Below, piece after piece: positions 8,260 to 43,780 of a stretch of DNA of 64,000 nucleotides. A program made the translations under genes and the position numbers. Source of the stretch: a virus; IMG/VR virus record IMGVR_UViG_3300036860_000131, positions 1 to 64,000 of that record; one strand, given 5' to 3'. A model generated the notes under the pieces. It worked only from the letters and a program-made list of their open reading frames with translations, made no database searches and was not told where the DNA came from. The first letter of the stretch is position 1, and each line of letters starts with the position of its first letter.

Positions 8260-8502
8260 TTAGCCACGCTTCGCCCTCCGCTTCGGCTTTGGCTTGCACC
8301 ACGCCTCCAGCGCGGCCTTTGCCGCCTGCTCGCTGATGTACTCGCCGATGGATGTACCGCTGCCGTCGCGCTTGTCCTCAGCGCACGCCAGCCAGTGATC
8401 ATCCGGGTATTTCCTGCGCTCCACGCGCCCGAGAATGCGCCCGTCCACGTCGATGAAACGCCACTCGTCCCAGCCCGTTTTCTCCCAGCGCCGTTTAGCC
8501 AC
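8260..8502 (-). CDS. hypothetical protein (80 aa)
   Basis: GTG at 8502 overlaps the upstream TAA (GTGGCTAA junction). Ends KPKPKRRAKRG. Confidence 0.4.
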   Translation of the reverse strand: MAKRRWEKTGWDEWRFIDVDGRILGRVERRKYPDDHWLACAEDKRDGSGTSIGEYISEQAAKAALEAWCKPKPKRRAKRG

Positions 8503-8716
8503 GCTTCGCCTCCATCGCCGCCCCCTTCGCATTTGCCCTCCGCTTCGGTTTCGGCTTCGGCTTGCACTTGGCGAGTGCGAGTTCTATCTTCCGCCGCTCC
8601 CTGGCTAGTGCGCGCTTGTAGGCGCGGATGAACTTCGGATCGCGGTACAGGGCGGCGAGCGGGCTGGGCTTTGAGCTTGTGATGATCTTCGCCGCCGGGG
8701 TGGATGCTTTGCTCAC
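8495..8716 (-). CDS. hypothetical basic protein (73 aa)
   Basis: GTG at 8716 overlaps the upstream TGA (GTGA). Ends KPKPKPKRRANAKGAAMEAKRG. Confidence 0.4.
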   Translation of the reverse strand: MSKASTPAAKIITSSKPSPLAALYRDPKFIRAYKRALARERRKIELALAKCKPKPKPKRRANAKGAAMEAKRG

Positions 8717-8895
8717 GCCGCCCCCTTCGCCCGCCCGTCGCCGCAGGGGCACCGCTGGGCGCCGATGTAACCGTTTTTCACCGAGTGTTGCTCCAGGTCC
8801 TGGCACAAATTTTGCAGGAGCGGCCGCAGATGCGGAGTTTTTTGGAGCGCCCTAAACGCCTCGACTTCCAGGCTGTCCAACTCCTGTTTCGTCAT
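8713..8895 (-). CDS. hypothetical protein (60 aa)
   Basis: ATG overlaps the DnaB stop (ATGA). Confidence 0.45.
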   Translation of the reverse strand: MTKQELDSLEVEAFRALQKTPHLRPLLQNLCQDLEQHSVKNGYIGAQRCPCGDGRAKGAA

Positions 8896-10259
8896 GACGC
8901 CTCCCGCATTTCGCTCTCGTTGACGCGCTCCACCAAGCGGCAGTGGCGGCCGTCCAGGTGCAACGTCACGGCGGTATCGCGCGGCCCGTTGCGCTGCTTG
9001 GCCACGATAACCGTCACCTCGTTCGGGTCGCCGCCGTTGCGGTTGCGCCGCTCGCGCGCTGGCGCGTGCAGTAGCAGCACAACATCGGCGTCCTGCTCAA
9101 GGCTCCCGCTGTCGCGCAAGTCTGCGAGCGTCGGCTTGCGGCTCTCGGTTTCGCTCGATCGGTTCAACTGCGAAAGCGCGATAATCGGAATCTTGTGATC
9201 CACCGCCAGCAACTTCAGGCGCCGCGTGATCGCACTGATTTCCTGGTTGCGGTTCTCATGCCGGCCGTGCTGCTGGATCAGGCCGATGTAGTCCACGATC
9301 GCCAACTCGCACCGCCCCGTTTTCGTCGCCGGTATCCTGGCGCAAATGTCGGTAAGCTCGAACACGTCCGCGAAGATTTCCAGCGGCGCGTTGTCCAGTT
9401 CCGCGAGTATACGCGCGGCCCGGTGACGCTCGGCTGGCTGAAGATTGCCGGCCGCCAGAAACCCGTGCTCGATCAGCGCCTCGGACGAGATGAGGCGCCG
9501 CAATAGATCCTCCGCCGGCATTTCGAGCGAGAACATCCGGGCCCGCCGGTCGCGCCGCGCGTTGTACGCCGCGATGTTCAGCGCCATGGTGCTTTTCCCG
9601 ACGGACGGCCGCGCGGCCACCACGATGAGTTGGCCCGGCCGGAAACCGCCGGCGAGTTCGAAGTTCAGGCGCGGCCACGGCGTCGGTAGCGCATCGTTCG
9701 ATGGCCTAACGAGCAAGCCGTTCACGCCGCCCTCGACGCGCCCCACAAGCTCGCCGATGGTCCCGCGGTCGGTGTCCGTCGAGAGCGATCGCTCGAGCGC
9801 CCGCAGCTTCGTTTGCGCCTCGTGGATCTCATCGACGGCGCCGCTGAATCCCTCGGCTGCGCGTAGGTGAATCAGCGTGCTCAGCCGGTATGCCTGACGG
9901 TCGACGGCCTTGCGCCGCAGCACGCGCAGCCAGGGCCCGAGGTTCACGATCCGCACGGAGTCGAACGCCAACTCGCTCAGCGTCCCGGCGAACGGAGGTC
10001 GCTCCGCGCCGCGGTCCAGCAGCACGCGGTACACGTTGCCGAGTTCCGGTGAGCCGTGCGCGTCGGCAGCCGCGGCCGCAAGTTGAAAAATAGCGCGGTT
10101 GGACTCCACCGCGAAGTCGTCCTCCGCAACGGCCTCCCGAACCTCCGGCCAGACCTCGGCGCCGCGGGAAAGCACGTTCCCGAGCACCCACCGCTCCGTG
10201 TCCGCGTCGATGAGCCGCACGGGTAGATCGTCCACCTTCGCCGGGTTACTTTTCGCCAC
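8892..10259 (-). CDS. dnaB: replicative DNA helicase, DnaB family (455 aa)
   Basis: Walker A AARPSVGKST, DYIGLIQ, ALSQLNR and RDSGSLEQDADVV. The N-terminal domain reads ERWVLGNVL. GTG at 10259 is preceded by GGGAGA and overlaps the end of the initiator gene. The longer track ORF (to 10715) is a shadow extension. Confidence 0.9.
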   Translation of the reverse strand: MAKSNPAKVDDLPVRLIDADTERWVLGNVLSRGAEVWPEVREAVAEDDFAVESNRAIFQLAAAAADAHGSPELGNVYRVLLDRGAERPPFAGTLSELAFDSVRIVNLGPWLRVLRRKAVDRQAYRLSTLIHLRAAEGFSGAVDEIHEAQTKLRALERSLSTDTDRGTIGELVGRVEGGVNGLLVRPSNDALPTPWPRLNFELAGGFRPGQLIVVAARPSVGKSTMALNIAAYNARRDRRARMFSLEMPAEDLLRRLISSEALIEHGFLAAGNLQPAERHRAARILAELDNAPLEIFADVFELTDICARIPATKTGRCELAIVDYIGLIQQHGRHENRNQEISAITRRLKLLAVDHKIPIIALSQLNRSSETESRKPTLADLRDSGSLEQDADVVLLLHAPARERRNRNGGDPNEVTVIVAKQRNGPRDTAVTLHLDGRHCRLVERVNESEMREAS

Positions 10260-24815: not shown

Positions 24816-25289
24816 TCAAGCTGCAACCGGCGCAACCGTCGGCGCGCGCTCCTGCACGAGCCACTGGCACGGCTCATCGCCCAGCGTGCGCACAAGCTGC
24901 TCCTGGTCGCCGTCCGCGAGCCGCAGACAGCCATGCGTCGGTCTCAGCTTGCCTTGCGCGTTGAGGGCGCCGCCATGCGCCAGAAGGCCGCGCCGCCCGT
25001 TGCGCTCGGCGATTGCCGCATCCCCGCCGGTCGGGTCGAGCCGCACGACGGGATGCGGGCCGTAGGTATGAAGTGATAGGAGCACGCCGTTGACTCGCCC
25101 GGAATACGTACCCATCGGCAGATCGCCGCCGATGCGCAGCGGGTCGCGCTCCGGGTTGCCGTTCTGCGCGGCGTAGGCGTTGTCAGACTTGCCGTAGCAG
25201 GCACAGGCGAACAGGACGGTATCGTCGCTGAGAACTTCGAGCATACCGAGTTGATGGCGGTCGCGCGGGAGTGTGACGCGGACCAGCAT
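24816..25289 (-). CDS. YkuD-fold L,D-transpeptidase-domain protein (possible peptidoglycan-active enzyme)
   Basis: LLAHGG...LRPTHGCLRL matches the YkuD His / Cys (hGC) catalytic signature. Confidence 0.6.
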   Translation of the reverse strand: MLVRVTLPRDRHQLGMLEVLSDDTVLFACACYGKSDNAYAAQNGNPERDPLRIGGDLPMGTYSGRVNGVLLSLHTYGPHPVVRLDPTGGDAAIAERNGRRGLLAHGGALNAQGKLRPTHGCLRLADGDQEQLVRTLGDEPCQWLVQERAPTVAPVAA

Positions 25290-25672
25290 CAGAAGCTATC
25301 CCGCACGCCTGGGCGTATCTCAAAGTCTCCCGTGGCCAGTAACTCTGGTTCCTCGCCGGCTGCATCGGTGATTGTCAGCTCGTACTTGTAGATGACGGGC
25401 TTCGTCGGCCGCTCGACGGCGGACGTGTCGGCGGCCAGTATGTCGATCGTGCCGATACCCGCGGGCGCGTCGGTCATCTCGATTCCATCCCCGCTGTCAC
25501 TGGTCCGGGTGAACAGGATTTCACTATCAGAGGAACTGTACGATGGCTTGACGGTGAACCAGAGCTTCCCGCCCAGCGCGACCGGATCGAGCGGCGCCCC
25601 GAGCGCGTTCACGAGCGTCATCCCCAACTGCTCATGCCGCTGCCAGTAGATGTAGAGATTCCGTATCAGCAT
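25289..25672 (-). CDS. small beta-rich fibre-associated protein
   Basis: Alternating pattern KLWFTVKPS...ILFTRTS...GTIDILAADT...YKYELTITD typical of Ig-like phage fibre/baseplate accessory domains. Confidence 0.5.
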   Translation of the reverse strand: MLIRNLYIYWQRHEQLGMTLVNALGAPLDPVALGGKLWFTVKPSYSSSDSEILFTRTSDSGDGIEMTDAPAGIGTIDILAADTSAVERPTKPVIYKYELTITDAAGEEPELLATGDFEIRPGVRDSF

Positions 25673-27282
25673 GTGCGCTCAATCTCGGCGTATGGCATTG
25701 TGAACCTGACAGCACTTTCAAGTGGCGAGAGCAGACCGGTAGCGGTGAATAGCGTGAGCCGTGCGCAGCCGCCGCGCCAGCCCGGCTGACCGCCCCGAAG
25801 ATAGGCCGCGAGCGAGTCACTGACCGAGAGGATGGAATTACCTTCAAGGTACGCGAAGGTGAAGTGCGCGACGCTTTCATGTGTACGGGCGTAGGCCGGC
25901 TGCTGTGGCGCCAGCGGTTCGAGGACGTACAGGAAAGCAGCCTTCGCGTCGGTCACAATCTCGGCCGCCATGACGAAAGCTGTCTGGGAGTCGGAGATGG
26001 CCTGGAGCGCTGAAAGGTAGGCTGCCTGGGCGTCGACCAGCGCCTCCTGCGCGGCTGTGGACGCGGATTGAGCGTCCGCCACGGACTCGGATCCGACCAA
26101 GTATCCGGACTGCGCGTCGGCGACCGGCTCGAGCGTGGCGAGGTACGCAGCCTGCGCGTCCGCCACCGCCTCCGCTGCGAGTATTAATGCCGCCTGGGCG
26201 TCGGCGACCGTCTCCAGCGCTGCGGTATACGCCGCCTGCTGATCCAGCGCGCCCTCAACGGCGGCGACAAACCCCGCCTGCTGCAACGCCAGGCTCTCTC
26301 GCGCTCCCAGGAAGGCCGGTTGCGAGTCGGCAATGGACTCGTGGCCGGCGAGGAATCCCGGATGCTGCCGGGTGATTATCTCCAAACCTGCGAGGTATAC
26401 CGCCTGCTGTACAGCCAGGCTCTCGAGCGCGGCCAGGAATCCGAACTGCTGCGCGATGGCGCCCTCGACGGCGGCCAGGTACGCCGGCTGCTGCGCGGCC
26501 AGGGTTTCGAGCGCGTCCAAATACGCCGGGTTGCTGTCGGCCAGTGCTTCGAGCGCCGCCAGGAATCCAGGCTGTTGCTCAATGACGCTCTCAAGGGCTG
26601 CAAGGTATGCAGCTTGCTGTGCCGCCACGGACTGAAGCGCCGCGAGATAAGCCGGTTGCTGGTCGGCGGCACCCTCGATTGCGCTCAGGTAGAGCGGCTG
26701 TTGGGCAGAGAGCGATTCGAGAGCGTCGAGGTACGCTGGCTGATTGTCGGAAAGAGCTTCGAGGGTAGTGAGGTAGGCTGCCTGCTGGAGAGCTAGAGAT
26801 TCAAGCCCGGCAAGATAGGCCGACTGTTGCCGCGCGACGGCTTCCAGCGAAGACAGGAACGCCGCTTGCTGCGCGGCGACGGCTTCATGTGCGACGAGGA
26901 AGCCGGACTGCTGCGCCGCCATCGATTCGAGCGTCGCCAGGAAAGAAGATTGTTGGTCCGCGATGGCTTCCAGCGTCGTGAGGTATGCTGGCTGCTGAGC
27001 CGCAATCGCTTCCAGGGCATCAAGGAACGCCGCGGTCGCGTCCGTGACTGCTTCATGGGCCGCCAGGTAGCTCGGCTGTGCATCGGCGACATTCTCATGC
27101 CCAGCGACAAACAGTGACCGCTGTACTGCGGCGGCTTCCTTGGCGGCAAGAAAGGAAGACTGCGCATCGGCGAGGGATTCCAGTGCATCCACAAATGCAG
27201 CCTGAGCCGCACTAATCGACTCGGCACCGGCGACTGGAATGCCGTGCGCCAGGAACGGACTGCGCCGCTGGAAGAAACTCAT
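25666..27282 (-). CDS. repeat fibre protein: 32 in-register 14-residue repeats plus a ~60-aa C-terminal domain
   Basis: Units such as PAYLAALQSVAAQQ / AAYLAALESVIEQQ / PGFLAALEALADSN read without any indel from residue 28 to 475. Confidence 0.7.
   Translation of the reverse strand: MSFFQRRSPFLAHGIPVAGAESISAAQAAFVDALESLADAQSSFLAAKEAAAVQRSLFVAGHENVADAQPSYLAAHEAVTDATAAFLDALEAIAAQQPAYLTTLEAIADQQSSFLATLESMAAQQSGFLVAHEAVAAQQAAFLSSLEAVARQQSAYLAGLESLALQQAAYLTTLEALSDNQPAYLDALESLSAQQPLYLSAIEGAADQQPAYLAALQSVAAQQAAYLAALESVIEQQPGFLAALEALADSNPAYLDALETLAAQQPAYLAAVEGAIAQQFGFLAALESLAVQQAVYLAGLEIITRQHPGFLAGHESIADSQPAFLGARESLALQQAGFVAAVEGALDQQAAYTAALETVADAQAALILAAEAVADAQAAYLATLEPVADAQSGYLVGSESVADAQSASTAAQEALVDAQAAYLSALQAISDSQTAFVMAAEIVTDAKAAFLYVLEPLAPQQPAYARTHESVAHFTFAYLEGNSILSVSDSLAAYLRGGQPGWRGGCARLTLFTATGLLSPLESAVRFTMPYAEIERTC
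25858..27201. repeat. 42-bp tandem coding repeat (32 units)
   Basis: Periodicity read from the translation. Several other frames on both strands are also stop-free across the array, which explains track ORFs 26320-26796, 26333-26635, 26376-26672, 26793-27227 and 26827-27117. Confidence 0.85.
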
Positions 27283-27283
27283 G

Positions 27284-27967
27284 CTATCTCGCTAGACCGG
27301 GGGCGAATGGACGGGGACGGGTGGCCCTAGAAAGGTAGACGTGAGATCCCGGCCCCCAGGATGCTAAAGCCAATAGATCAAAATTGGACGTTGACCAATC
27401 TACGGCGACAGCTAAGGCAGAGTTAGCACTGGCGAAGTTGTCACTCGCCCCAGTAGCGCTAGATGCTTCAACGTCAGCGTCATAGTTCTCCGTAATACCC
27501 GTCCAAGCCGCCGTAGAAGCGGCGTTTGCTGTGGTCGAGACACCGACCACAAAGCCGCCCGCCGCAACTGCTATTGTGGCAGAAGGATCAGTAACAGAGG
27601 ATGTCTTGGTATCGGTAAGCACTGGCGCGGCATCCGTGCTGTATGCGCCGATGAACGCCCGAAGCATCGTAGTGCTGAATACAACGACGATGTCTCCAGT
27701 GGTACCGGTTGGAACGCTCGCTATCGCCAGCCCTACACAATGAGAGTTAGGGCTATCGTTTCTTGTAACCTGAACCGCGATGCTCGCCGTGACTCCGCCA
27801 ACAGTAACGCTGGTGATCGATGAATCAATTGAGCCAACGCGGCCCATTACAGCTACGATGATGTAACGTCCCGCCGCCGCAGCGCCGAGGTTTTGAGATG
27901 CAAATGTATATGTTTGGAGATCGGATGCGCTGCTAGCTGTTTGAAGAAATGTGACTAAGACCGCCAT
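27284..27967 (-). CDS. Ser/Thr/Ala-rich hypothetical fibre-region protein (lower GC)
   Basis: ORF with beta-rich, S/T/A-rich composition. Confidence 0.55.
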   Translation of the reverse strand: MAVLVTFLQTASSASDLQTYTFASQNLGAAAAGRYIIVAVMGRVGSIDSSITSVTVGGVTASIAVQVTRNDSPNSHCVGLAIASVPTGTTGDIVVVFSTTMLRAFIGAYSTDAAPVLTDTKTSSVTDPSATIAVAAGGFVVGVSTTANAASTAAWTGITENYDADVEASSATGASDNFASANSALAVAVDWSTSNFDLLALASWGPGSHVYLSRATRPRPFAPGLAR

Positions 27968-27971: not shown

Positions 27972-28688
27972 CTAGCGTATTTTCTCGCCTACCGATTGCC
28001 CGCCACCCGTCGAGAATCCGAGGTAATTGTTAAACTGCTGAAAGTCCCACGTCAATACCACTAATCCAGGAGCCCCCGGACCACCGTTGCGACTGGAGTT
28101 GCTGCGATAACCGCCGCTGCCGCCACCAGCATAGTTGGCGCCAGTCAACCCAACTGCGTTCGCCGTGCCGACGCCTGCGCCACCGTCGCCGCCATTATCT
28201 GCCGTGCCCGTTCCCGCAGTCCCGCCGCTTGCCGATCCGCCATTGCCGCTTGTGCCCGCACCACCCCCACCTCCGCCTGACTTCGTGCTAGTAACGCCGA
28301 CTGCGCCGTCGCCGCCTTTCTGGACGCGATCACCAATACTCGCGCCGCTGGAACCCGCTGCCGGTGTACCGCCGCTGTTCAGTGGACCGCCCGCACCGCC
28401 CTCCGCGAAAACAGTGGAAGAAGTACTGAACCAGGATGGATCACCTTGGGAACCGGCGCCAGCCCCGCCCGCTTTTGCTGCCGCAACCGTGACGGTGTAG
28501 ACCGTTCCGGCCGTGACTGGGATTTGCTTTCTCGCGTAGGTCCCACCCGCACCACCACCACCGCCGTTGTTATTCGTGCTTGCACCGCCGCCTGCTCCGC
28601 CACCGCCCCAGCATTCTGCGAGAACCCAGCGGATACCCGCTGGACATGTCCACGTGCCGGTGACGGTGAATGTTTGCGTTGACGCCAT
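27972..28688 (-). CDS. glycine-rich domain protein (phage fibre-associated type)
   Basis: FTVTGTWTCPAGI..VLAECWGGGGAGGG followed by long Gly-rich tracts, ending GAPGLVVLTW. Confidence 0.6.
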   Translation of the reverse strand: MASTQTFTVTGTWTCPAGIRWVLAECWGGGGAGGGASTNNNGGGGGAGGTYARKQIPVTAGTVYTVTVAAAKAGGAGAGSQGDPSWFSTSSTVFAEGGAGGPLNSGGTPAAGSSGASIGDRVQKGGDGAVGVTSTKSGGGGGGAGTSGNGGSASGGTAGTGTADNGGDGGAGVGTANAVGLTGANYAGGGSGGYRSNSSRNGGPGAPGLVVLTWDFQQFNNYLGFSTGGGQSVGEKIR

Positions 28689-29604: not shown

Positions 29605-31839
29605 TCAGATTAATGGTACTGTCGCTTCACGCCGCGCCAACACATTTGTGAAATCGTAGTAGCGCGTTTCCGAGAACGCCACCCCGGTCAGGTTCAGCGT
29701 ACAGGCGTTCTCTCCAAGCCATTGCCCGGCCTCGCAGTAAAGCGAGCTGTTCGCCATGTTGCCGATTGTGTCGCTGAAATATACCCGCATCTTCATTGGG
29801 TATGGAAACCCGCTGGTCACGTTTCCGGTGAAGGTCCGCTGGATGCTCGTCGTGGAATCCGTGACGTAGACCGAAGAGTTATCCTGTCGCGCCTGCTGAA
29901 CGAGAGACTCGATCGCCGTCAACTGCGCCGGGGCCATTTGCGGAGGCACATTGTAGAGAGCAATGTCTCCGATCTTTAAGCCGATATTGAAACTAGCGAC
30001 GTTGTCCGTCCAGCAAGCGCCAGTGCAATCCGGCAGGCGGATGTTCATCGCCCCTTCCCAATAAACCCATCGATAGCTTACCGGCGAGAACTTAGCATCG
30101 CCAGCGTTCCTGGGATCGGTAAACGGTATACCGGCCGACAAGGTATCTAGAGTTTCCTGTTCCTGGATAAACAGCGCGTCCGGGAACTCGCCCTGCAACT
30201 GCCGGAATATGTCAGCCGGAAGCGGGGAGCCACCGACCCATACCGCGCTGTCGACGTAGAAGATAGTCGCTCCCCAACGGTTTTTGGCATACGTGATCTT
30301 GCTCCGCAGGAGATCAGTGACTTCCTGAACCTGGGTGTTGTGGAATGACGTTTGTGCGCCGTTGCCGTCGGGGATGATGGACCATTGGACCCCCAAGGGG
30401 TCGTAGCAGGCATAGAAAGCCCCCTGGTATGGGACATCCACCTTGATGAAATAATCCTTGTAATCGTTGCTCACGTCATACTGGCAGGTAGGCGGGAGTA
30501 CGCTTCCCCATTTCAATTGCTGTGGTCGAATCGTCACGCCAACCTTATACCCGGCATCGCGGAATATCGCGAAGAGATCATCCGCCGTCGCCTGCATTTC
30601 TGGAGCGTAGCCGGAGGCAAAGGCTCGCGGGTCGCCGACGTAGGTCGTAGCGTGGATGAACTCCTGCCCCTCCAGATCCCAGACGATGATTCCCTGGGGC
30701 CGGACCGGGCGCGCGTTCATCTGGTCACGGATCTGCGTCGCCTTAGCCAGAGCGAGGCTGCGAAACGTGGGGATGTCCGCCACGTCGATGAGCGGATCTT
30801 GCAAGTAGCCGCGCGGATTGGTCGCGCTCCGCTTGCCCACGTCACCGATGAACCAGCTCATGATAGGACGGCGATCCGGCCAGTTGATGACGGGCGGATA
30901 CGCAGCGCGATAGTGATCGTAGGCTTCCGGTACAACCACCTTCATCGTGGAAGTCATGTCGGCGGTCATCCGCAGGACGGCCAGCATCGACTTGGATTGA
31001 CCGGGACCGATGGGAAGCAATAGCTCCGGTTGATTCTTGAAGTTATAAGTGAATCCTACCAGCATCGGGATGCTTGCGCCTGTAAACGGCGCATCGATCC
31101 AGAGAGCAAATCTACCCGCTCCGAAGTTCGCGTATCCGACCGGCTGCCCACGCCCGACCTTGAGGATTTTAGACGTGGCAGGATCGTATTGTGGTGAGGT
31201 GATCCCCAGAACACTGAAGAGAGCCCGCTCGACCGTGACAGAGGCGGATAAGTTGGCGATAGTCAAGTCGGCGGATACCGCATCGGTTCCGTACATTGAG
31301 AATGTGGCAGTGACCGTCATATTCGCCCCGGCGGCCGAGCACTGATGCGTTACGGTGTTCCCGCTGAAACTTTTCGAGCAGGATGGGGTGACGTTGTTCG
31401 TGAGGGTGCCATCCGCCGCACGAAGGTTAACCGAGGTGAGCATCCCCTCGCCGTAGACATAGTTGTAGTTGGTTCCGTTCCACACCAGCGTGGCGAGGCC
31501 ATTGCTGTTGAGGGTGTATGAGAGCGACGGCGGTGGAGGTGGCGGCGGCAATAGCGTCACCACTGCCGTGTCGGACCTGGGAGGGCTGCTCGTCGCAGCT
31601 TTAACGGTTACGATCTGCTGCGTGGGAATCGTCGCGGGAGCCGTGTATAGACCGGTCGCTGAGATCGTTCCTACCGCTGGCGTCCTGGACCATGTCACCG
31701 GATCGATATGACCAGTTTGCGTCGCCATGAACTGTTGAGTCTGGGACGCCGATAGGCTGACGGTCTTCGGGGAGACAGTGACAGAGTTAGCGGCAGTCAA
31801 CGACAGTTGGCACAAAAATACAAGTCCACGCATTCGCAT
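29605..31839 (-). CDS. secreted Ig-like-domain protein with a possible TIM-barrel glycosidase-like region (744 aa)
   Basis: Signal-like MRMRGLVFLCQLSLTAANS. Ig-like domain VTVSPKTVSLSASQTQQFMA...VTWS...GLYTAP. A Pro7 linker follows. Later IIVWDLEGQEF and WGATIFYVDS. The hydrolase call rests on motifs only. Confidence 0.5.
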   Translation of the reverse strand: MRMRGLVFLCQLSLTAANSVTVSPKTVSLSASQTQQFMATQTGHIDPVTWSRTPAVGTISATGLYTAPATIPTQQIVTVKAATSSPPRSDTAVVTLLPPPPPPPSLSYTLNSNGLATLVWNGTNYNYVYGEGMLTSVNLRAADGTLTNNVTPSCSKSFSGNTVTHQCSAAGANMTVTATFSMYGTDAVSADLTIANLSASVTVERALFSVLGITSPQYDPATSKILKVGRGQPVGYANFGAGRFALWIDAPFTGASIPMLVGFTYNFKNQPELLLPIGPGQSKSMLAVLRMTADMTSTMKVVVPEAYDHYRAAYPPVINWPDRRPIMSWFIGDVGKRSATNPRGYLQDPLIDVADIPTFRSLALAKATQIRDQMNARPVRPQGIIVWDLEGQEFIHATTYVGDPRAFASGYAPEMQATADDLFAIFRDAGYKVGVTIRPQQLKWGSVLPPTCQYDVSNDYKDYFIKVDVPYQGAFYACYDPLGVQWSIIPDGNGAQTSFHNTQVQEVTDLLRSKITYAKNRWGATIFYVDSAVWVGGSPLPADIFRQLQGEFPDALFIQEQETLDTLSAGIPFTDPRNAGDAKFSPVSYRWVYWEGAMNIRLPDCTGACWTDNVASFNIGLKIGDIALYNVPPQMAPAQLTAIESLVQQARQDNSSVYVTDSTTSIQRTFTGNVTSGFPYPMKMRVYFSDTIGNMANSSLYCEAGQWLGENACTLNLTGVAFSETRYYDFTNVLARREATVPLI

Positions 31840-31863: not shown

Positions 31864-32412
31864 TCAGCTCACCATCACGCTTCGGTTGAGAGTGCCTTCG
31901 TCCTTGAACGCCTGCTCAGACTCCGGCGGTCCGATCATGCACGGGAGCCACTGATCGCGCCACCATTCCTCGTAAAGACCGGTGGCGTGAATCTTCAGAA
32001 CCTTGATCCGCATGCGCCCGCTCCGCTCATCGCGTTTCGGCCAGCAGATCGCGAGAGCCTGGATGCCGGAACGCGGCGCTTTGCGATTGCCGACTCCCTT
32101 GTAGGAAACGACCTGAGCCTCAAAGTAGCCGTAGGCACCAGCATCGTCGTCGGCGCGGAACCATCGGCCGTTGCAGAACAAAGCCAGCGCCTTGATGCGC
32201 ACGCGCGTCTCGTTGCACCGCGTCATCAACCGCCGCCAGTCGGACATCGGGTGCGGCTCGTCGTTCGGCAGCATCACGGTCGGGCCGCTGCTGCCCATCC
32301 AGGACGGCCGCCCGACGATTACCGCACCGTCATCGAGACGTGCGACCCAGCGCGGACCGCCGACGCCATCCGGCGGCGCGTCTTGCAAGCCGCCCTTGCT
32401 GATGATCTGCAT
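31864..32412 (-). CDS. hypothetical protein
   Basis: ATG at 32412 abuts the upstream stop. An alternative ATG lies at 32439. Confidence 0.5.
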   Translation of the reverse strand: MQIISKGGLQDAPPDGVGGPRWVARLDDGAVIVGRPSWMGSSGPTVMLPNDEPHPMSDWRRLMTRCNETRVRIKALALFCNGRWFRADDDAGAYGYFEAQVVSYKGVGNRKAPRSGIQALAICWPKRDERSGRMRIKVLKIHATGLYEEWWRDQWLPCMIGPPESEQAFKDEGTLNRSVMVS

Positions 32413-32624
32413 CACGTCTCCGTAGCATGCCAGTTCCAACCGCTTATTTCGATGTGACGAAACTTGGCCATGTTAGATGTCAGGTCCTCATCATCAGTTC
32501 TCGGATCGACCCAGCCAAGGAACTCATCGGTAAATGAGCCTCGGACGCAGCAGTCATCGAAGACCACCCTGTAGATGTTTCCGACAACCAAATCTTTCAG
32601 AGCAATAGCCGTTAGTTCTGCCAT
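32412..32624 (-). CDS. hypothetical protein (70 aa)
   Basis: ORF only. Confidence 0.45.
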   Translation of the reverse strand: MAELTAIALKDLVVGNIYRVVFDDCCVRGSFTDEFLGWVDPRTDDEDLTSNMAKFRHIEISGWNWHATET

Positions 32625-32629: not shown

Positions 32630-32938
32630 TCAGCTCTGGAGTAGCGCCTTGAGTTTGGCGTCGAGCGCCGCCGCTGGATTCGGCGCCGGCGCGAGGCTCG
32701 CCTTGAACGCGGCCGGATCGAATCCTTCGAGCTTATTCGCCTTGAAAACGGCGATGGCTTCGTCATCCGATAGCGTCTTGCTCAGCAGTTTTGCGAGCAC
32801 TGTCGAGATGTTCTCGGGCGGATCGAGGCTTCTGATTTCTCCCGCCAAATCGTTCCGCTGCGCGTCGCTCATGGACTCGCCGCGGGCAACCGCACGCAAG
32901 ATGCGGTCGCTATAGAATGCGCACTGTTCTGGTGTCAT
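32630..32938 (-). CDS. hypothetical protein (start at 32938 or 32989)
   Basis: ORF only. The ATG at 32938 is back-to-back with the plus-strand ATG at 32937. Confidence 0.45.
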   Translation of the reverse strand: MTPEQCAFYSDRILRAVARGESMSDAQRNDLAGEIRSLDPPENISTVLAKLLSKTLSDDEAIAVFKANKLEGFDPAAFKASLAPAPNPAAALDAKLKALLQS

Positions 32939-33662
32939 GTGTTTTCCTTTACTGAACACATATTTCGATGTAGGATTGATTTTGGCCAATCACAAACGAG
33001 TTATTGGACTGACCCCTGCGGAATGGACGGAGCTTTACGTCGCTAAGGGTATAACCGCGAAGGCTCTCGCGGCGCGATTCGAGACAACGCCGGAGATCAT
33101 TAAACGTCACTTGCAGGAGGCTGGGTTGCAGATCCGCGGGCGCGGCGGGCGGAATGAGGCGCATGCGTTTTTGCATAGACACGAGGATCTGATTCGCCGA
33201 ATGCTGGACGCGGGGAAGCGCTGCCCGGCGATCGCTGCGAAGATCGGCTGTTGCACGTCGGCGGTGCACTTCAAGGCTGCGAAGATGGGTTACATACTGC
33301 CGAGAGGTAATCCGGCGAATCTCAGATTTACGCGGAACCAAGGCTCGATAACCAAGGGGATTGAGACGCGCCGGGCGAAAGGTTATTTCTCCGACCCTCG
33401 CAAGAACTCGAACTGGCGAGGCGGGGTTTCTCCTCAGGCGGCGTACGGTTTCGGATTCACAAGAGAATTGAAGGCGCAAATCCGAAAGAGGGATAATCAG
33501 CGCTGCCGCATTTGCGGTACCACCAAGAACCGGGCGAGGAATGGCGGACTTCTTGACGTTCATCACCGTGACCGCAACAAATTGAACAATGACCCTTCCA
33601 ACCTTATAACTCTTTGCCGCTCTTGCCACACCAGCATCGATCAACGTAAGGCCACGCTGTAA
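32937..33662 (+). CDS. HNH homing-endonuclease-like protein on the opposite strand to the late operon
   Basis: CRICG...LDVHHRDRNKLNNDPSNLITLCRSCH is an HNH core, with HTH-like N-terminal repeats and lower GC. The true start may be an internal TTG. Confidence 0.7.
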   Translation: MCFPLLNTYFDVGLILANHKRVIGLTPAEWTELYVAKGITAKALAARFETTPEIIKRHLQEAGLQIRGRGGRNEAHAFLHRHEDLIRRMLDAGKRCPAIAAKIGCCTSAVHFKAAKMGYILPRGNPANLRFTRNQGSITKGIETRRAKGYFSDPRKNSNWRGGVSPQAAYGFGFTRELKAQIRKRDNQRCRICGTTKNRARNGGLLDVHHRDRNKLNNDPSNLITLCRSCHTSIDQRKATL

Positions 33663-33672: not shown

Positions 33673-34293
33673 CTAAAAGAGTTCGAGGGCCACTCCGATA
33701 TCAAATAAATTCTTAGCGCCCGCGCTCTCGCCGCGGGCGCTCATCGCGAAGTACCAAGTGTGATCGGTCGCGCTCGACTTCTCGCCGAGGTCCAGACGCT
33801 CACCGGAGTTATTCCCGCCGATGTTCGCCGAATCATCGTTCACCTGCGTCCACGCCGTCGCTGTGACGCCACGCTCGAAGAGGTGCGCCTCAATGGCGAC
33901 GGCTTCGTTTGTGGTGACCGAGCCGTCGAACGTGTACGCGAAACTGTTCTGCGTTGCGACGGCGCTCCCGTTGACCAAGTGAAAACGGAAAGTGCACTCG
34001 CCTTCCGTCAGGTTCGTATCGTTGAGGTTCTCCGTGCCGCCGCTGTTGATCTGGCAGGTTCCGGACGCGACGAATTTGACGTTGTTGTTGTGGCTCGCGT
34101 TCGGGCCGGTGTCGCATGCGTCCGTGCCTGGATCATCAGTGCCGATATGGGTGCCTTCATTCCACGCGGTTGTCGAGATAGTGGTGGTCAGATCAGTCTG
34201 CGAGCCGCTGAAGACGATGGTGTTGGCCCCGATGTCCGTCCACGACGGCGAGCCGGTCGTATTGTTGTTGAATTCAAATGTTGTCGTGGCCAT
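33673..34293 (-). CDS. Thr/Asn/Ser-rich hypothetical structural protein
   Basis: MATTTFEFNNNTTGSPSW... with beta-rich composition. Confidence 0.55.
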   Translation of the reverse strand: MATTTFEFNNNTTGSPSWTDIGANTIVFSGSQTDLTTTISTTAWNEGTHIGTDDPGTDACDTGPNASHNNNVKFVASGTCQINSGGTENLNDTNLTEGECTFRFHLVNGSAVATQNSFAYTFDGSVTTNEAVAIEAHLFERGVTATAWTQVNDDSANIGGNNSGERLDLGEKSSATDHTWYFAMSARGESAGAKNLFDIGVALELF

Positions 34294-34913: not shown

Positions 34914-35789
34914 CTATCTCGACAAATAAGCCCGCACGTCTGTGCCAGCAAGCCAAACCGAGGGCTGCTGACCTCCGGTCGGAACGCCGATTACCGGCGC
35001 CGGCCCTGCGTCCCACGTCCACAGAGGCAAGGCGTCGGTTGGGAAGCTGGTGACTCCAGATTGCACAAAGCACGGATCCGCGCAGCTCAGATTCAGCCCG
35101 GTATGACCAACCGTTAGGATGCCGCCCGCCGCGACGTAGACAAAGGCCCTGCCCTGCCCGCCGCTAAGCTGGAGAGGTAGCGGGAAGCTGGCCGCAGAGA
35201 ACTGATAGACCGTCTTGCCAATGCGCACGTTGCAGGGATTCGCGCATTCGAACACCAGCGTTTTCGGTGCGGTCTGCCGCATGCCCAGGATGTTCATCCC
35301 CTGGATGGGATCCGTAGGGGCATTGCCGCCGGGCGAACCCTGAATGCCTTGTGGGCCTTGCGGACCCGGCGGTCCCGCTGGTCCGGGCGGCCCTTGCGGA
35401 CCTGCGGGTCCTGGGATACCGCCGCCCGAGGTACAGGCCCGATAGATGTAATCCTGTGGTGGCTCCCAGCCATTTCGTCGCGTCCACAGACGGACGAACA
35501 ATGCCCGGCCATCGCACGGCAATCCAGCAACGGTCTTCGATGTGCCCGTGAGCACGCCACAGCTTCCATTGTTCGGTGGACAGGCCGGGTAGATGTCGCC
35601 CTGCCCGCTTGAGTTGCCCACGTCGAGCCAGTAGCCGTTCGCGCCAGTGGCTGCGGGCCATGTGAACGTTGCGGTTGGCGGTAGCGTGGAGCCGGGCACG
35701 GGGCTGGTGATCTTCGCCACCGGCTCCGCAGCCGCTACAAGCGCCACGAATGCGAGCATGGCCATGCCCTTCATTGCGTTAAAACTCAT
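34914..35789 (-). CDS. collagen-like triple-helix-repeat protein with a signal-peptide-like N-terminus
   Basis: N-terminus MKGMAMLAFVALVAAA. GIPGPAGPQGPPGPAGPPGPQGPQGIQGSPGG gives about 10 G-X-Y triplets. Confidence 0.7.
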   Translation of the reverse strand: MSFNAMKGMAMLAFVALVAAAEPVAKITSPVPGSTLPPTATFTWPAATGANGYWLDVGNSSGQGDIYPACPPNNGSCGVLTGTSKTVAGLPCDGRALFVRLWTRRNGWEPPQDYIYRACTSGGGIPGPAGPQGPPGPAGPPGPQGPQGIQGSPGGNAPTDPIQGMNILGMRQTAPKTLVFECANPCNVRIGKTVYQFSAASFPLPLQLSGGQGRAFVYVAAGGILTVGHTGLNLSCADPCFVQSGVTSFPTDALPLWTWDAGPAPVIGVPTGGQQPSVWLAGTDVRAYLSR

Positions 35790-38951: not shown

Positions 38952-39173
38952 TCACCGAGAACAATCTGCGGGGCGCGACAGCCTTTGTGCGGTCGTCATC
39001 GGTGCGGGTAAAAATAGACGACCCTCCTCATTATCCAGGATCATCCTGTCGATTTGACATTTCGCGCAGGGGCACTTTTCCAGTCCGAGAGATAACCATT
39101 TGCACCCACCGCGAACGTCGAGAAGGTCCCTTGCCTGCCTCACGGCGTGAATTTGCCGCCTAGTCCATTTCAT
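38952..39173 (-). CDS. hypothetical small protein (73 aa)
   Basis: ORF with ATGA coupling to the 1536-aa gene. Contains CPCAKC. Confidence 0.45.
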   Translation of the reverse strand: MKWTRRQIHAVRQARDLLDVRGGCKWLSLGLEKCPCAKCQIDRMILDNEEGRLFLPAPMTTAQRLSRPADCSR

Positions 39174-42100
39174 CGCAGCAATACCACCACGCCCGTCGAT
39201 CCGCCTTCATTCTCAGCGTCTACCGTGACGCGGTCGCCCTCAGCGACTGGGTCCATGGCGAACCCGTGCACATGGTTAGATTTGCTCTCATCGGCCGGCA
39301 AGAATAGGTCGAACCAGTCGCCATCGTTCCGGCGCACCCGGATGGTCAGGACGCCATCAGAGGCCGGCTGGATTGCCCCGCCGTAGGGAGTCTGGAGTGC
39401 CAGTTCGTCCTCCGGGAATTCATCGCTTGCCGAAAGTTCCCCATTCGCCACGCCAGCCACGAGGTAGGCAACCGGGTTCGGCGCTTGCACACTGGCGGGG
39501 TCGTAGCCGTCCGCGAGGGCATAGATTTCGACGGTATCGACGCGCGGATCCGTTGAGGCCGGGATGCCGGAGATCTCGATGCGCGTGGCATCGCCTGTCG
39601 GGCCCGTGGATGGCGACAGCGGGGAAAGCTCGCTCCGGAAGCCAGTCCCGGACCAGGCGATCGCGTACCGGCGGCCGATTCTAACGCCAAGTTGCGATGC
39701 GAATCCACCGGTCGTGGCAGTGAGCGGTCCGTTCGTCTCGCTGACCAGTTGCCCGCCAGTTCCAATACGATCATAAATCAGTACTTTGTTGACCGCCGGG
39801 CTGCCGCCTTCATTCAGCGCTTCAGCGATGAAATAGGATGCAAACGCCGGGTCAGCATTCAGCCAATCCGCGATACTCAAGGCCACCAGATCGAGCTGGA
39901 AATCGCCGAGGCTGTCCTGGGCCTCCGGGTGGTCAAACGCCACCCAGGCGGGGAATATCATGCTGACCGCGCCGTGGTCGGATGTCGTCACCGGCGCATC
40001 CTTGATGGCAGAGACGCGCAGGGAAAGCACTACCGTGGCGTCGCATGTGCCGCTAAGTATAATGCTCCCTTTAGTTTGAAGCACCGTCGTGGCAACCGAG
40101 GATATGGCCGGTGGCGTCGGGATAACGCCAGTCGTCCGCAAGGCATACGCTTCGGCGAAGGTCTGCTGCTCAGTTAGGAGCGAATCCCCAATGTCTGCCG
40201 ATGAGCCGCCGGCAACGTCCGTGAGCAGGAACTGCAACGTCTGCTCCCCAAGAGTGCGGATGCGATGGGGCCAGGCTGTGTCACGTGCGCGGATAGGAGC
40301 CATCTCGCGCGTTGTCAGGGCGTACAGGTCCACCGGTAGGCTTCGAAGGCCGCGGTTGCTCTCCAGAACGCCACGTACTAGCACCACGCCGGCGGAAGGT
40401 AGGTCCACAAGTTGCTCGAACCGCGCCTGGTTCTGAGAACGGAAGAAGCCCGGAGCGAACTCGATCTTTTCGCGACGGACGCGGACCTTCCACAGGCGGA
40501 CGTCCTGGTAGATCGCCTCTCCAACGTCACCGGTCGGCAACGGAGTATTGACGATCAGCTCGCCCGTCGCGATGTCGTAGAAGTTCACCTGTTGCTGGTC
40601 AAACGGCGGCAGCGTCGTATCGTTCACCACCACCGCGGCGCCGGGCCGGAGCTTGAGGCCGGTCTCAACCGTCAGCAAGTTCGGGAAATCGGCATCCTTT
40701 GCCAGGATCGTAGCATTCACGCGCATGTGCGGCCGCGCCTCCGTACCCAGCACGCCGCGGCGAACCTCGACCGTCCCGAAGTTCGACATCGCACTCTCGG
40801 GCGTGACGCGCACCACTTCCATTAGTTCTGCGTCGGCCGCCAGCCACTCGCCCTCGACCGGAGGCATCCCGGAGTAGGTGAACGTCGTCGCTTCTTTCGT
40901 ACAGTCCCCGACGATGGTGCCGTACCTGTTCGTACTCTCGTCGGCGTAGTAGATATCGAAGTAGCCCGTTCGCACGCCGTTCGAGCCGCGGCCCACGGCG
41001 AAGCGATCGAGCTTCAGCCGGCCGTCCTGCTCGGTGCTTGCCCGGAACCGCCATGCTGCCGGCCGGAGGTCTTCCGTCGGGATCGGGTCGGCGAAAACAT
41101 CCGCCGGCTTCGGGCCCACGATGAGATCGTAGATTTCGTTGTGAGTGGAACGGCCCTCGATATCGACCGAGAAATCCTGGTTTAGCCGCCACCGGAGGCA
41201 CCGGAACTCCAGGTATTGGTCGCGGGCGATTTGCGGGTCAACCGAACCGGGGAGTGTTGCCGGGTAGGTCGGGAGATCGATGTTCTCCAAGCTGCAGACC
41301 ATGCCGGGCTCGGTGTTGAGCGCCAGAATGGTCGTCTTGAATCGAATGGTGCGGGCGTATTTCCAGGTTTCCGGCTGAATGCCTCCAAGCTCCTCACGGA
41401 GCCGCGTGGCCACTAGGCGCGCGCATTGGCTCTTTGTCGAAACGCCGGGATAAGCAATGGTGCTCTTCTGAAACTGCGGCGCGCCGGCGCGGCCAACCAT
41501 CACCGCGTGGTCGATATCATAGACCTCGACGGTATTGCCGGCGAACCCATACTCCTCATCCGCGAACGTGCCGGTCAGGTGGTTGAAACTCGGCTTGAGT
41601 GGGGCAAAGCTGAGAGAGCGCCAGAGGGTATTCCCGTCGCTGAAAGCCGCCCGCACCGAGGAATTGACGCGGATTCCGAAACGGATCTTGCCGAAAGCGA
41701 AGGTGTAATAGCCAAGGCAGCAATTCAGAACTTCCTGCAACCAATCGCGCAGCGGCTTCTGCTCAGCCAGCAGACCGTTAAACGTGAACTGCGTTTCGGT
41801 CGTACTTGCCTCACTTCCGATAAGCCGAGTGACTTCCTGATCGCAGACAGCAGCAGCGATCTTCGCCGACTCAATGTCGAGTAGCGCCTCTTGCGTGGCA
41901 GCGTCCGCGAGATGAACGCGCATGGCGCGAAGGATCAGGTTGACGGCGATCCAGATCGGGTTATACAAACCCGGCATCCATTCGCGGCCGCTCTCGGTCC
42001 AGATCCACCCGCCTAGGCCCTGGCGGATGGAGATGACCATGTTGTGCTCTTGGAGGTTGGACGGCTGTAAACCTTTCGCATCGGAGCGCCGGATCTCAGC

Positions 42101-43780
42101 GAACGCCGTCCCTGCTGCCTTCGAAGGACGGTAAACCTGAACCCCGGCTCCGCCTTCCCCGAGCGCCGTATTGTTCTGATCACCGTCGGCGTCCTGGTCC
42201 AGTATCGTGCCGCCGATTCGATCGCTCCCGGTTTCCGGGTCGCCGCCATGACATCCCGGCGTACCCGTGATCGATCCGAGCCGAAGGCCGTAATTATCAT
42301 TCGCCGGGCTATCCCAGCCATGGAAGTTCTGGCCGTCCAGCGTGTGGGGATTGGTCGGTAGCGATATGCTACCGTCCGTGCGGATGAACTCAGTGCGCCG
42401 CGGCGAAGTGAAGTCCGCGATGGGACCTTCGCCGATGATGCCAATCGCGGCGGCGAAGTCGCCCTCATCCCGAAATTCGGCAATCATGGCATTTACGGGG
42501 AACCCGACGGCCTGATCATCGTTCGTGACCCGGCAATAGATCTCCGGGAGAACCCGACCATAGATCGTGTCGTTCACCATTGAGGCCGAGGTAAGCGGCG
42601 ATGGCCGACCCAACTTTAAGAATCCGCTCTGGCTGTAATCCTTCGTAAGCACGCTCTGCGGCTGAACGAACAAGCCGCCGAACCTCTTTTCCATGCCGTG
42701 AGCAACGCAACCGTTCGGGGTAAGAAACCCCTTATCGCAGACCGCAGCGTCTGGCGTGAACTCGTAGGTTCTTGTGCGGATCGAGCCGTCGGAATTCTTA
42801 CCGTCGTTGAAAGTCCGCTCGGTGAAGGTCTGATTGCTCTCGTCCGCCCACGGACAGCCGCTCACCTCAACGTTGAATGCCTTCCAGCACGTCCGCGAGA
42901 TGCGCCGCGGCGGGTAGGGCAGCGTCAACTCGTACAGGCCGTCCTGCGCGCGAAGGTGAAACACCGGGTCGGCGCTGCCGGTCCAGTCCGTAACCAGACC
43001 TTTCCATAAGTTGATTTTCGTTCCAGTCGGAACATGGAAAAGAGCGAACTCAATATCGGCCTGGAGCAAATCAACGTCGTTCGCCAAGTACGTCATGACG
43101 TGGTCGGCGTTACCCAGGTCGAACGATGCCAAGTCCGTCTCGCCGCTCATGCCCTGCTCGATCCCATCCCAGGAGAGGATGCGCGGCTGATAGAGTTGGC
43201 CTCCAACCGTGGCGCGCCGATCGGAAATGTAGATCGCAGGGTAGCCCGCCTCGCGCGGCTGGATCTTAACGAGTATGAATATTTCCTGGGCCTGGCGGGC
43301 GAGGTCGGTCTCTAGAGTACTGATCGTGTCGAACCGTTCTACCGTCGCGCTGATCGAATATGTCGGGGTAGTCTGTGGAATCTCAACGAGCGTGACTCCG
43401 GTGCTCGAAAGACAACCGCAGAAGTAATCGAATTCCAATGCCTGATCTTCGAACCGGCAGATGAAATCAGTGAAACTTCCATCCTCATTCGGGGCAGAGT
43501 AGGTGAATGCCCCGACCGCTCCCTGATTCTGAAGCCACCAGGCTTCGAGCGATTTCCGCTCAGTGGGGTCTAGAACTTCCTTTCTTACCGTAAACCGTTT
43601 AGCACCGCCGCCGAGCAGATACCGTTGCTCGATCTTCGCATTGGCGGCAAGTGGGCCGAAGCGGTGGACCACAATCTTCGGCGCATGCGCGCGCCCGTGC
43701 TCATAATCGGTGACTACTGGAAACCCACCACTCGTCGGGGTGATCTCTGGGATTTCAATGTTGCCTAGGAATTCGGGCAC
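39170..43780 (-). CDS. giant tail-tip/host-specificity protein (1536 aa), apparently a fusion of GTA g12/g13/g15-like modules
   Basis: The N-terminus (..RFTVRKEVLDPTERKSLEAWWLQNQGAVGAFTY..) is DUF2460-like. The next region (YQPRILSWDGI...RRISRTCWKAFNVEVSGCPW) is DUF2163/BR0599-like. A large J-like C-terminal part follows. Confidence 0.75.
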   Translation of the reverse strand: MPEFLGNIEIPEITPTSGGFPVVTDYEHGRAHAPKIVVHRFGPLAANAKIEQRYLLGGGAKRFTVRKEVLDPTERKSLEAWWLQNQGAVGAFTYSAPNEDGSFTDFICRFEDQALEFDYFCGCLSSTGVTLVEIPQTTPTYSISATVERFDTISTLETDLARQAQEIFILVKIQPREAGYPAIYISDRRATVGGQLYQPRILSWDGIEQGMSGETDLASFDLGNADHVMTYLANDVDLLQADIEFALFHVPTGTKINLWKGLVTDWTGSADPVFHLRAQDGLYELTLPYPPRRISRTCWKAFNVEVSGCPWADESNQTFTERTFNDGKNSDGSIRTRTYEFTPDAAVCDKGFLTPNGCVAHGMEKRFGGLFVQPQSVLTKDYSQSGFLKLGRPSPLTSASMVNDTIYGRVLPEIYCRVTNDDQAVGFPVNAMIAEFRDEGDFAAAIGIIGEGPIADFTSPRRTEFIRTDGSISLPTNPHTLDGQNFHGWDSPANDNYGLRLGSITGTPGCHGGDPETGSDRIGGTILDQDADGDQNNTALGEGGAGVQVYRPSKAAGTAFAEIRRSDAKGLQPSNLQEHNMVISIRQGLGGWIWTESGREWMPGLYNPIWIAVNLILRAMRVHLADAATQEALLDIESAKIAAAVCDQEVTRLIGSEASTTETQFTFNGLLAEQKPLRDWLQEVLNCCLGYYTFAFGKIRFGIRVNSSVRAAFSDGNTLWRSLSFAPLKPSFNHLTGTFADEEYGFAGNTVEVYDIDHAVMVGRAGAPQFQKSTIAYPGVSTKSQCARLVATRLREELGGIQPETWKYARTIRFKTTILALNTEPGMVCSLENIDLPTYPATLPGSVDPQIARDQYLEFRCLRWRLNQDFSVDIEGRSTHNEIYDLIVGPKPADVFADPIPTEDLRPAAWRFRASTEQDGRLKLDRFAVGRGSNGVRTGYFDIYYADESTNRYGTIVGDCTKEATTFTYSGMPPVEGEWLAADAELMEVVRVTPESAMSNFGTVEVRRGVLGTEARPHMRVNATILAKDADFPNLLTVETGLKLRPGAAVVVNDTTLPPFDQQQVNFYDIATGELIVNTPLPTGDVGEAIYQDVRLWKVRVRREKIEFAPGFFRSQNQARFEQLVDLPSAGVVLVRGVLESNRGLRSLPVDLYALTTREMAPIRARDTAWPHRIRTLGEQTLQFLLTDVAGGSSADIGDSLLTEQQTFAEAYALRTTGVIPTPPAISSVATTVLQTKGSIILSGTCDATVVLSLRVSAIKDAPVTTSDHGAVSMIFPAWVAFDHPEAQDSLGDFQLDLVALSIADWLNADPAFASYFIAEALNEGGSPAVNKVLIYDRIGTGGQLVSETNGPLTATTGGFASQLGVRIGRRYAIAWSGTGFRSELSPLSPSTGPTGDATRIEISGIPASTDPRVDTVEIYALADGYDPASVQAPNPVAYLVAGVANGELSASDEFPEDELALQTPYGGAIQPASDGVLTIRVRRNDGDWFDLFLPADESKSNHVHGFAMDPVAEGDRVTVDAENEGGSTGVVVLLR

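Follow-up and report, generated by a model that had tools for sequence, protein, structure and literature searches.

What sort of virion component can be built from one short sequence repeated, in unbroken phase, along nearly the entire length of a protein? This question is raised by a 538-amino-acid (aa) protein encoded in the uncultured viral record IMGVR_UViG_3300036860_000131, of which we analyzed positions 1 to 64,000 (the whole stretch of 64,000 nucleotides, hereinafter the window), and which a sequence-only reading of this DNA had described as a fiber made of 14-residue units. We found the repeat itself to be undescribed, repeat-built phage fibers being already known as a kind, and recovered a large family of proteins from uncultured phages that share it. 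On the combined evidence of the array, its relatives and its gene neighborhood, we put at about even the chance that the gene encodes the rod (shaft) of an accessory adhesion fiber on the virion surface.

Cutting the protein every 14 residues yields 32 consecutive in-register units without an indel between residues 28 and 475 (Table 1), exactly as the sequence-only reading had proposed. Residue identity along the protein is 0.45, 0.44, 0.44 and 0.44 at lags of 14, 28, 42 and 56 and about 0.11 at other lags, with the highest identity over all lags in shuffled sequences (n=1000) being 0.188. At lag 7 the identity is 0.107, which amounts to no signal; the suggestion that each unit represents two heptads thus fails for the sequence repeat, a 3.5/7 component being confined to the hydrophobic pattern. 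The composition of the 32 units (position 1: A12/P11/S7; 2: A20/G6; 3: Y16/F14; 4: L24; 6: A20/G5/T5; 7: L18/H5; 8: E30/Q2; 10: V12/L10/I5; 11: A22; 12: D16; 13: Q18; 14: Q26) gives the consensus [A/P/S]-A-[Y/F]-L-x-[A/G]-[L/H]-E-[S/A]-[V/L/I]-A-D-Q-Q. This agrees with the consensus drawn earlier, as does the proportion of units that open with proline, about a third (11 of 32); tyrosine or phenylalanine occupies position 3 in 30 of the 32. The array is acidic (isoelectric point 4.05), with 54 aspartates and glutamates against 7 lysines and arginines. Chaining with a position matrix extends it to 34 units by including degenerate ones at the ends, namely one before the core array (residues 14–27, GIPVAGAESISAAQ) and one or two after it (residues 476–489, FAYLEGNSILSVSD, followed by an AYL motif at an offset of +2), and a profile of the repeat covers residues 17–502. 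The non-repeat C-terminal tail, a candidate docking or oligomerization end, showed no significant match to the conserved C-terminal tails of the repeat family. The exact 538-aa protein is present on three metagenomic contigs (e.g., Logan SRR11742948 at 61.5 kb). As had been noted, the region also holds spurious overlapping open reading frames (ORFs), at 26320–26796, 26333–26635 and 26827–27117 on the plus strand and at 26376–26672 and 26793–27227 on the minus strand.

Pairwise DNA identity between units averages only 53% (maximum 79%), and Tandem Repeats Finder (TRF) retrieved fragments only: one with a period of 42 and 3.1 copies, and a 126-bp three-unit block with 2.1 copies, the trace of an old block duplication. 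The conserved residues are written in mixed synonymous codons (Glu8 by GAA 15 times and by GAG 15 times; Leu4 by four codons), and because these are scrambled the array is ancient and held by selection at the protein level. The repeat is accordingly under purifying selection and is not the product of recent slippage, in keeping with the earlier view that no recent amplification took place.

Searches with phmmer of the window protein against 5.8 billion proteins recovered three relatives, P0001 (e-value 1.3e-42), P0002 (6.9e-25) and P0003, in each of which the 14-mer repeat lies C-terminal to globular domains; by eye, the N-terminal domain of P0003 is beta-helix-like. A repeat profile made of three-unit tiles and searched against 1.84 billion cluster representatives then retrieved 184 protein clusters at E≤1e-3, of which 116 had E≤1e-10, with proteins of up to 2887 aa; all members of the family are metagenomic 'hypothetical proteins'. 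The window ORF scores 464 bits against this profile but had contributed to its building, the phmmer search being the independent test. It shares the family pattern of a 14-residue period with Ala2, [YFW]3, [LIVM]4, a small residue at 6, an acidic residue at 8 and/or 12, and Gln14. Across the family, 88% of the spacings between adjacent anchor motifs (n=1869) are 14, about 7.5% are 15–17 and about 3% are 12–13. The strict register claimed from the sequence alone therefore stands for the window array and not for the family as a whole. Nor did the proposed selection on length find support: the family proteins have from about 3 to 66 units, and four loci with one shared backbone (L005, L006, L016, L017) carry two or three repeat paralogs each, of 8–43 units apiece. 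No close relative of the window repeat gene was found for a comparison of unit number. The period is a family-wide constraint; the copy number is not. The median longest uninterrupted run is 8 units, and the window protein, with 34, is second only to P0013 with 39.

The typical relative has an N-terminal globular domain followed by arrays broken by inserts of about 200 aa. Domains fused to the arrays include Laminin_G_3, Polysacc_lyase, and DUF6298 with Collagen_bind_2 (in P0161, P0082 and P0023), and the proteins end in a tail of about 28 aa ('LTYFPFTEDFTG..DPW..HW'), a basic 'FKGMWRGMRKRM' tail or a domain of about 140 aa. The window protein is devoid of the globular domains, inserts and C-terminal endings of its relatives, and is almost pure array. 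P0184 and P0169, which matched P0004 through N-terminal globular domains and not through the repeat, were set aside. The basic ending, F[KR]GMWRGM[RK][RK][RK]M, and the DPW..HW ending are common to otherwise divergent repeat proteins (the short endings were seen among P0004, P0011, P0013 and P0014, and among P0002, P0016, P0062, P0065 and others), and both are candidate virion-docking or assembly signals. The ~140-aa domain occurs in 49 of 194 family proteins and has no Pfam match; it is mostly C-terminal (e.g., P0006, P0008, P0010 and P0131) and sometimes N-terminal (P0013), with the pattern PDGD..W...LY..IDE...D.DY......FEV.L..P....WR....V.L.QG...IA....Y.L...E...ITD...LRLRF.

None of the described families accommodates the repeat. 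The window protein had no match in Pfam (E≤0.01), PHROGs or NCBIfam, including the YadA-like head repeat (PF05658) and the Pfam phage-fiber repeats PF03335 and PF03406; its eight top relatives gave only spurious sub-threshold or biased matches in Pfam, and among PHROGs the relatives match only families of unknown function (25148, 30105, 26607, 15581 and 37611). Sequence searches of the PDB with the protein and two repeat profiles returned only marginal, out-of-period matches to Protein A (E about 3e-3 to 8e-3), which reflect QQxAF helix starts and were treated as spurious. Among GenBank phages, neither megablast with the 24–34 kb segment nor tblastn with the repeat protein gave a match, and tblastn with P0013 matched only through its globular insert, in Streptomyces phages. 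Scans of viral and genome contigs with the repeat protein found no relatives, a word-indexed search with the tile profile gave no significant match (which we read as a limitation of the tool), Foldseek with a single-helix AlphaFold2 (AF2) model returned nothing, and a literature search for a 14-residue phage fiber repeat brought up nothing relevant. The earlier statement that the repeat comes from no recognized fiber family is thus upheld across Pfam, PHROGs, NCBIfam, PDB sequences and GenBank phages.

The repeat comes in two flavors. The dominant one in the relatives reads [P/S/A]-A-[Y/F]-[L/I]-x-G-x-D-T-x-x-D-S-Q, with glycine at position 6 in 96% of units, alanine at position 2 in 85% and tyrosine or phenylalanine at position 3 in 97%; position 1 is most often proline, and Ser/Asn13 and Asp12 are frequent. 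In units of 15–17 residues the extra residues always lie between Gly6 and Asp12 (positions 7–11), which is loop-like behavior. Within a small Glu8 subfamily, which also comprises P0001, P0003 and P0038, the window protein stands at the extreme and is rich in Ala, Leu, Glu and Gln. Its fraction of helix formers is 0.60 against a median of 0.34 for the rest of the family; glycine occupies position 6 in 22% of its units against a median of 95.5%; and at positions 7–13 it has 0.09 prolines and glycines per unit against, typically, 0.3–1.5 among the members listed. Window units PGFLAGHESIADSQ and SGYLVGSESVADAQ bridge the two flavors, and units such as the latter resemble P0002 units such as PAFLIGGVISADAQ.

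For the window protein, the helical reading made at the outset is backed by structure prediction and by its hydrophobic stripe. From a four-row alignment, AF2 modeled the full protein as segments that are helical throughout, with low confidence (predicted local distance difference test, pLDDT, 57), and units 9–16 with a gapless 60-row in-register alignment of tiles gave a single helix over residues 2–111 (pLDDT 95.4); the predicted template-modeling scores of these monomer models, 0.31 and 0.45, are uninformative on assembly. Mean hydrophobicity peaks at positions 3, 4, 7 and 10 and weakly at 11, and Fourier power is highest at periods of 7 and 3.5. An assignment of a={7,14}, d={3,10} and e={4,11} yields an a/d/e stripe and places positions 5 and 12, which are variable or charged, at f, with Gln14 forming a polar core layer. 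The shaft of the window protein is probably an α-helical bundle, and as a coiled coil it would have a predicted length of about 66–70 nm (448–476 residues at about 0.148 nm each). The caution voiced earlier over proline in such a coil was well placed: the predominance of Gly6, the frequent Pro1 and the indels at positions 7–11 in the relatives speak against the ancestral fold having been a continuous coiled coil. Separately, we observed that in 5 of the 32 window units (3, 4, 8, 21 and 32) the putative core position 7 has histidine in place of leucine, always as 'HE', and that position 7 is also histidine in 8 of 40 units of P0001 and P0003; such an 'HE' layer may bind metal or sense pH.

Gene neighborhoods point to two companions of the repeat gene. 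Homologs of a 206-aa protein encoded upstream of it (51–77% identical) lie upstream of, and on the same strand as, repeat genes in L001, L005, L006 and L015–L019, and in P0040 this partner family is fused directly after the repeat array (residues 611–805); it had no match in Pfam, PHROG, NCBIfam, PDB or cultured phages. Recruitment with the partner alone retrieved seven viral contigs, and repeat ORFs are present on five of the six with downstream sequence. Homologs of a second, 191-aa protein follow the partner in L001, L006 and L013–L019, and of the 10 loci that could be assessed, 9 have the partner together with the ~190-aa protein upstream of repeat genes. Two genes upstream of the window repeat gene lies a gene for a 238-aa Gly_rich_2 protein, to which residues 2–247 of P0131 match (1.5e-13), followed there by about six repeat units; this is a valid fusion, and an apparent Gly_rich_2 'fusion' in P0184 and the context of L007/L008 were discounted. 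We conclude that the repeat gene most likely belongs to a portable three-component cassette. The cassette comes after the terminase and portal genes in L005, L006, L016 and L017; downstream genes were inspected for L005 and L006, and in these two it also precedes the scaffold and capsid genes. In the window it follows tail genes. A protein of about 490 aa is encoded beside the partner in the same four loci (L005 7015–8499, L006 3257–4723, L016 10815–12299 and L017 3683–5158), its N-terminal half glycosyltransferase-like and its C-terminal half S-adenosylmethionine-dependent-methyltransferase-like, and in L001 a 238-aa MetW-like methyltransferase (8284–9000) directly precedes the repeat gene. 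The window has no homolog of the ~490-aa protein. These neighbors raise the possibility that the fibers are post-translationally modified.

The adhesion-fiber rod that we favor would consist of the 34 in-phase 14-residue units, which are helix-compatible throughout in the window protein. Fourteen residues would make four turns of a supercoiled helix with 3.5 residues per turn, so that positions 3/10 (d), 7/14 (a) and 4/11 (e) would fall in one stripe over about 476 residues without a stutter. This hydrophobic stripe would hold the chains together as a bundle, most probably a parallel trimer like that of other phage fibers, and so give an acidic rod some 65–70 nm long. The short non-repeat ends would dock the rod to other products of the cassette, the candidates being its 206-aa and 191-aa proteins together with those encoded between them, the Gly-rich protein included, and the rod would act as a spacer that keeps binding modules away from the particle. 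Elsewhere, Gly_rich_2-type and partner-type domains are joined to arrays within a single polypeptide (P0131 and P0040). A fiber role, as suggested in the sequence-only reading, fits the position of the gene at the end of the tail/late operon and the fusion of the repeat to lectin, lyase and Gly_rich_2 domains in the relatives. The analysis demonstrates the repeat and its family, the purifying selection on it, the helical prediction, the association with the cassette and the domain fusions; the trimeric state, the rod length, the location on the virion and the adhesion function are points that we infer.

Several observations weigh against a continuous coiled-coil rod. Proline at the opening of 11 of 32 units is unusual inside such a coil, and the 54 acidic against 7 basic residues of the array leave e/g salt bridges unavailable. 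The single AF2 helix may be an artifact of monomer modeling or low complexity, and most of the family, with its Gly6 and its indels at positions 7–11, cannot form a continuous helix; from these family features it follows that the shared fold may be helix-loop or beta. It is possible, with a distinctly lower probability than that of the favored rod, that the same shaft function is served by another fold, made of short helices joined by linkers (positions 7–12), with an N-cap at positions 13–14, Pro/Ala at 1, and a helix A-Y-L-x that ends at Gly/Ala6. Three such chains would wind into a helix-turn supercoil like the stem of the phi29 head fiber gp8.5, or into some other non-canonical trimeric fiber fold, giving a rod shorter than the coiled coil. 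The glycine, proline, Ser/Asn13 and Asp12 preferences of the dominant flavor all suit this fold, as do the loop-like gain of residues between Gly6 and Asp12 in 15-, 16- and 17-residue units, the presence of about one Pro/Gly per unit at positions 7–13 in the nearest relatives P0001 and P0003, and the third of the window units that open with proline. Yet AF2 returned a continuous helix (pLDDT 95) despite an alignment dominated by the Gly-rich flavor, the window protein itself has almost no Pro/Gly at positions 7–13, and gp8.5 shows no sequence similarity (about 0 bits) and has a stem with a hydrophobic period of about 26 (2×13) rather than 14. A broader proposal, which we regard as doubtful, is a fiber fold unseen in solved structures that would be a trimeric helix-loop supercoil in most phages and a stutter-free, Pro-punctuated coiled coil in the window protein, spread as a portable cassette. 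Under that proposal the linker half of all the window units would have been replaced by helix formers, with the 14-residue phase kept and a length of about 70 nm, and the cassette with its 206-aa partner and ~190-aa protein would be carried in the head- or tail-gene region by unrelated backbones.

A further difficulty for the favored rod is that four related phages have the cassette in the head-gene region, between portal and scaffold/capsid genes, and not among tail genes, so that 'tail' fiber is a tentative label. This same position, directly after terminase/portal in L005, L006, L016 and L017 and before the scaffold and major capsid protein genes in L005 and L006, speaks for a head fiber or capsid decoration, for which there is precedent in lectin-bearing head fibers that aid adhesion (Hoc, gp8.5 and SPP1 gp12; PMC7602432). 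We nonetheless consider it rather unlikely that the cassette decorates the capsid. In the window it follows the genes for the J-like protein and the collagen-like tail fiber and ends by the early region, and Gly_rich_2/phrog_863 is annotated as tail-fiber related. Moreover, the partner is 51–77% identical between phages of different capsid families (phrog_4523 versus phrog_1357), a conservation that is hard to reconcile with direct binding to the capsid lattice. Very improbable, in our estimate, is an internal or non-adhesive helical protein (scaffold, ejection or ruler-like) or a functionless product of slippage. Long Ala/Gln-rich helical phage proteins do include tape-measure and scaffolding proteins, and the repeat protein itself lacks a globular domain; but this phage already has a tape measure and a protease-capsid fusion, the relatives fuse the repeat to domains of extracellular-glycan type, and recent slippage is excluded by the divergence of the units, their scrambled codons and the invariant E8 and Y/F3.

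Comparison with known shafts sets the repeat apart from each of them. Like T4 fibritin and the P22 gp26 needle, the favored rod would be an elongated, predicted-helical structure with a 3.5-residue hydrophobic stripe, encoded among late genes and likely serving as a spacer or in adhesion. Unlike them, its repeat is 14 residues long without 7-residue identity and carries proline in a third of the units; its core has Tyr/Phe and Gln, with no charged e/g pairs and no stutters over about 476 residues; no sequence homology emerged in the PDB searches; and most family members are rich in Gly, Asp and Thr and are not helix-like. With phi29 gp8.5, an accessory adhesion fiber, the family shares a short periodic motif with a hydrophobic xxFLxx/xxLLxx core and a turn rich in Gly, Asn, Thr, Asp and Ser, at about 13–14 residues per half unit, and a place in the head-gene region in four related phages. 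The two differ in period (about 26 versus 14), in extent (about 7 half-units versus 34 units) and in the N-terminal, capsid-binding beta-tulip base of gp8.5, which is absent from the window protein; hmmsearch --max with both repeat profiles scored gp8.5 at 0.6 and −0.9 bits, and gp8.5 was absent from the PDB profile matches. The YadA head repeat is reportedly a 14-residue left-handed parallel beta-roll, and YadA-type repeats resemble ours in period, adhesin context and the small or glycine position in each unit; however, their motif is NSVAIGxxSxAxxx rather than xAYLxGxDTxxDSQ, no Pfam match links them, and the window flavor is predicted to be helical, not beta. The triple beta-spiral of adenovirus and reovirus is likewise built of numerous short pseudo-repeats in which a Pro/Gly turn is conserved. 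Its shaft has a period of 15–16 and a different hydrophobic pattern, there is no sequence or profile match, and the window protein, unlike it, is rich in Ala, Leu, Glu and Gln.

Phage fibers set host range, and the variety of shaft folds described so far is limited. The repeat profile would label very large 'hypothetical proteins' (at least 184 clusters) as fiber or adhesin candidates and would mark glycan-binding modules. The window protein, almost pure repeat with the second-longest uninterrupted run and predicted to be helical, is the cleanest experimental handle; the two flavors, homologous forms of a single repeat, can be used to test how a fiber fold changes under a conserved period; and the conservation of the partner gene provides a lead to the mechanism of docking.

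Table 1. Features of the window discussed in the text (positions are those of the window).
Feature	Position	Strand	Basis or remark
Integrase-like gene	2326–3264		
127-aa protein downstream of repeat gene	25289–25672	−	Weak phrog_1084 match, function unknown
Repeat-protein gene, 538 aa	25666–27282	−	Longest ORF over the region
Non-repeat C-terminal tail, aa 490–538 and stop	25666–25815	−	Sequence
Extended array, 34 units, aa 14–489, degenerate end units included	25816–27243	−	Position-matrix chaining
Core array (aa 28–475), 32 units of 14 residues (42 bp) without gaps	25858–27201	−	
Trace of old three-unit (126-bp) block duplication, units 14–16 versus 17–19	26405–26667	−	TRF, 74% matches
227-aa protein upstream of repeat gene	27284–27967	−	No Pfam, PHROG or NCBIfam match
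238-aa Gly_rich_2 (PF21722) protein, two genes upstream of repeat gene	27972–28688	−	Pfam 6.8e-16, phrog_863 6.5e-20
191-aa second cassette protein	31864–32439	−	Family shared with the 155-aa L005 protein
206-aa conserved partner	33673–34293	−	Upstream, same strand as repeat gene
Collagen-like fiber	34914–35789	−	
J-like central fiber	39170–43780	−	
Tape measure	47338–50823	−	
Protease-major capsid fusion	59342–61609	−	phrog_4523, 1.5e-179
Portal	61344–62816	−	
Terminase	63205–63975	−	

The window reads as a complete tailed-phage genome from a metagenome, and the prophage status that had been supposed is unproven. Its late operon runs in the order portal, protease-major capsid protein, tape measure, J-like protein, collagen-like fiber and cassette; after the collagen-like fiber come unannotated genes, the last of them the repeat gene, and then genes for replication and one that is integrase-like. 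With cultured phages the capsid protein shares no more than 35% identity, and its fusion to the maturation protease is as in D3/RcKemmy-type phages. The ATG of the repeat gene lies 1 nt past the stop of the upstream gene, whose 227-aa product was likened by eye to the central insert of P0002, a likeness that BLASTP did not confirm (E=2.9); the position of this upstream gene suggests translational coupling to the repeat gene. At its 3′ end the repeat gene overlaps the next gene by 7 nt. Two genes downstream, a 157-aa protein (24816–25289, minus strand) has an H-x14-T-H-G-C-L-R motif that by eye is like the active site of the YkuD L,D-transpeptidase; this likeness is backed by no match in Pfam, PHROG, NCBIfam or PDB, and the protein may be a lysis enzyme.

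Within the late operon, a 241-aa ORF on the opposite strand (32937–33662, plus) with a faint HNH (PF01844) call lies between the 206-aa partner and the following cassette genes and looks like a homing-endonuclease insertion. The cassette also encodes a 744-aa protein (29605–31839, minus strand) whose N-terminal ~80 residues match a domain that a Bryobacteraceae metagenome-assembled genome (MAG) carries in at least nine copies within one ORF of 2230 aa (L012 4381–11070); full-length relatives, 47–64% identical, are present in two further Bryobacterales MAGs. The Bryobacterales contigs recruited in this way are devoid of synteny and of a repeat gene; an acidobacterial host for the window phage is weakly hinted at. 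Finally, the head/neck block contains a sialyltransferase-like gene (phrog_4603, 1.8e-43) and a methyltransferase-like gene (57803–58456 and 55658–56371, both on the minus strand), which may be virion-glycosylation genes.

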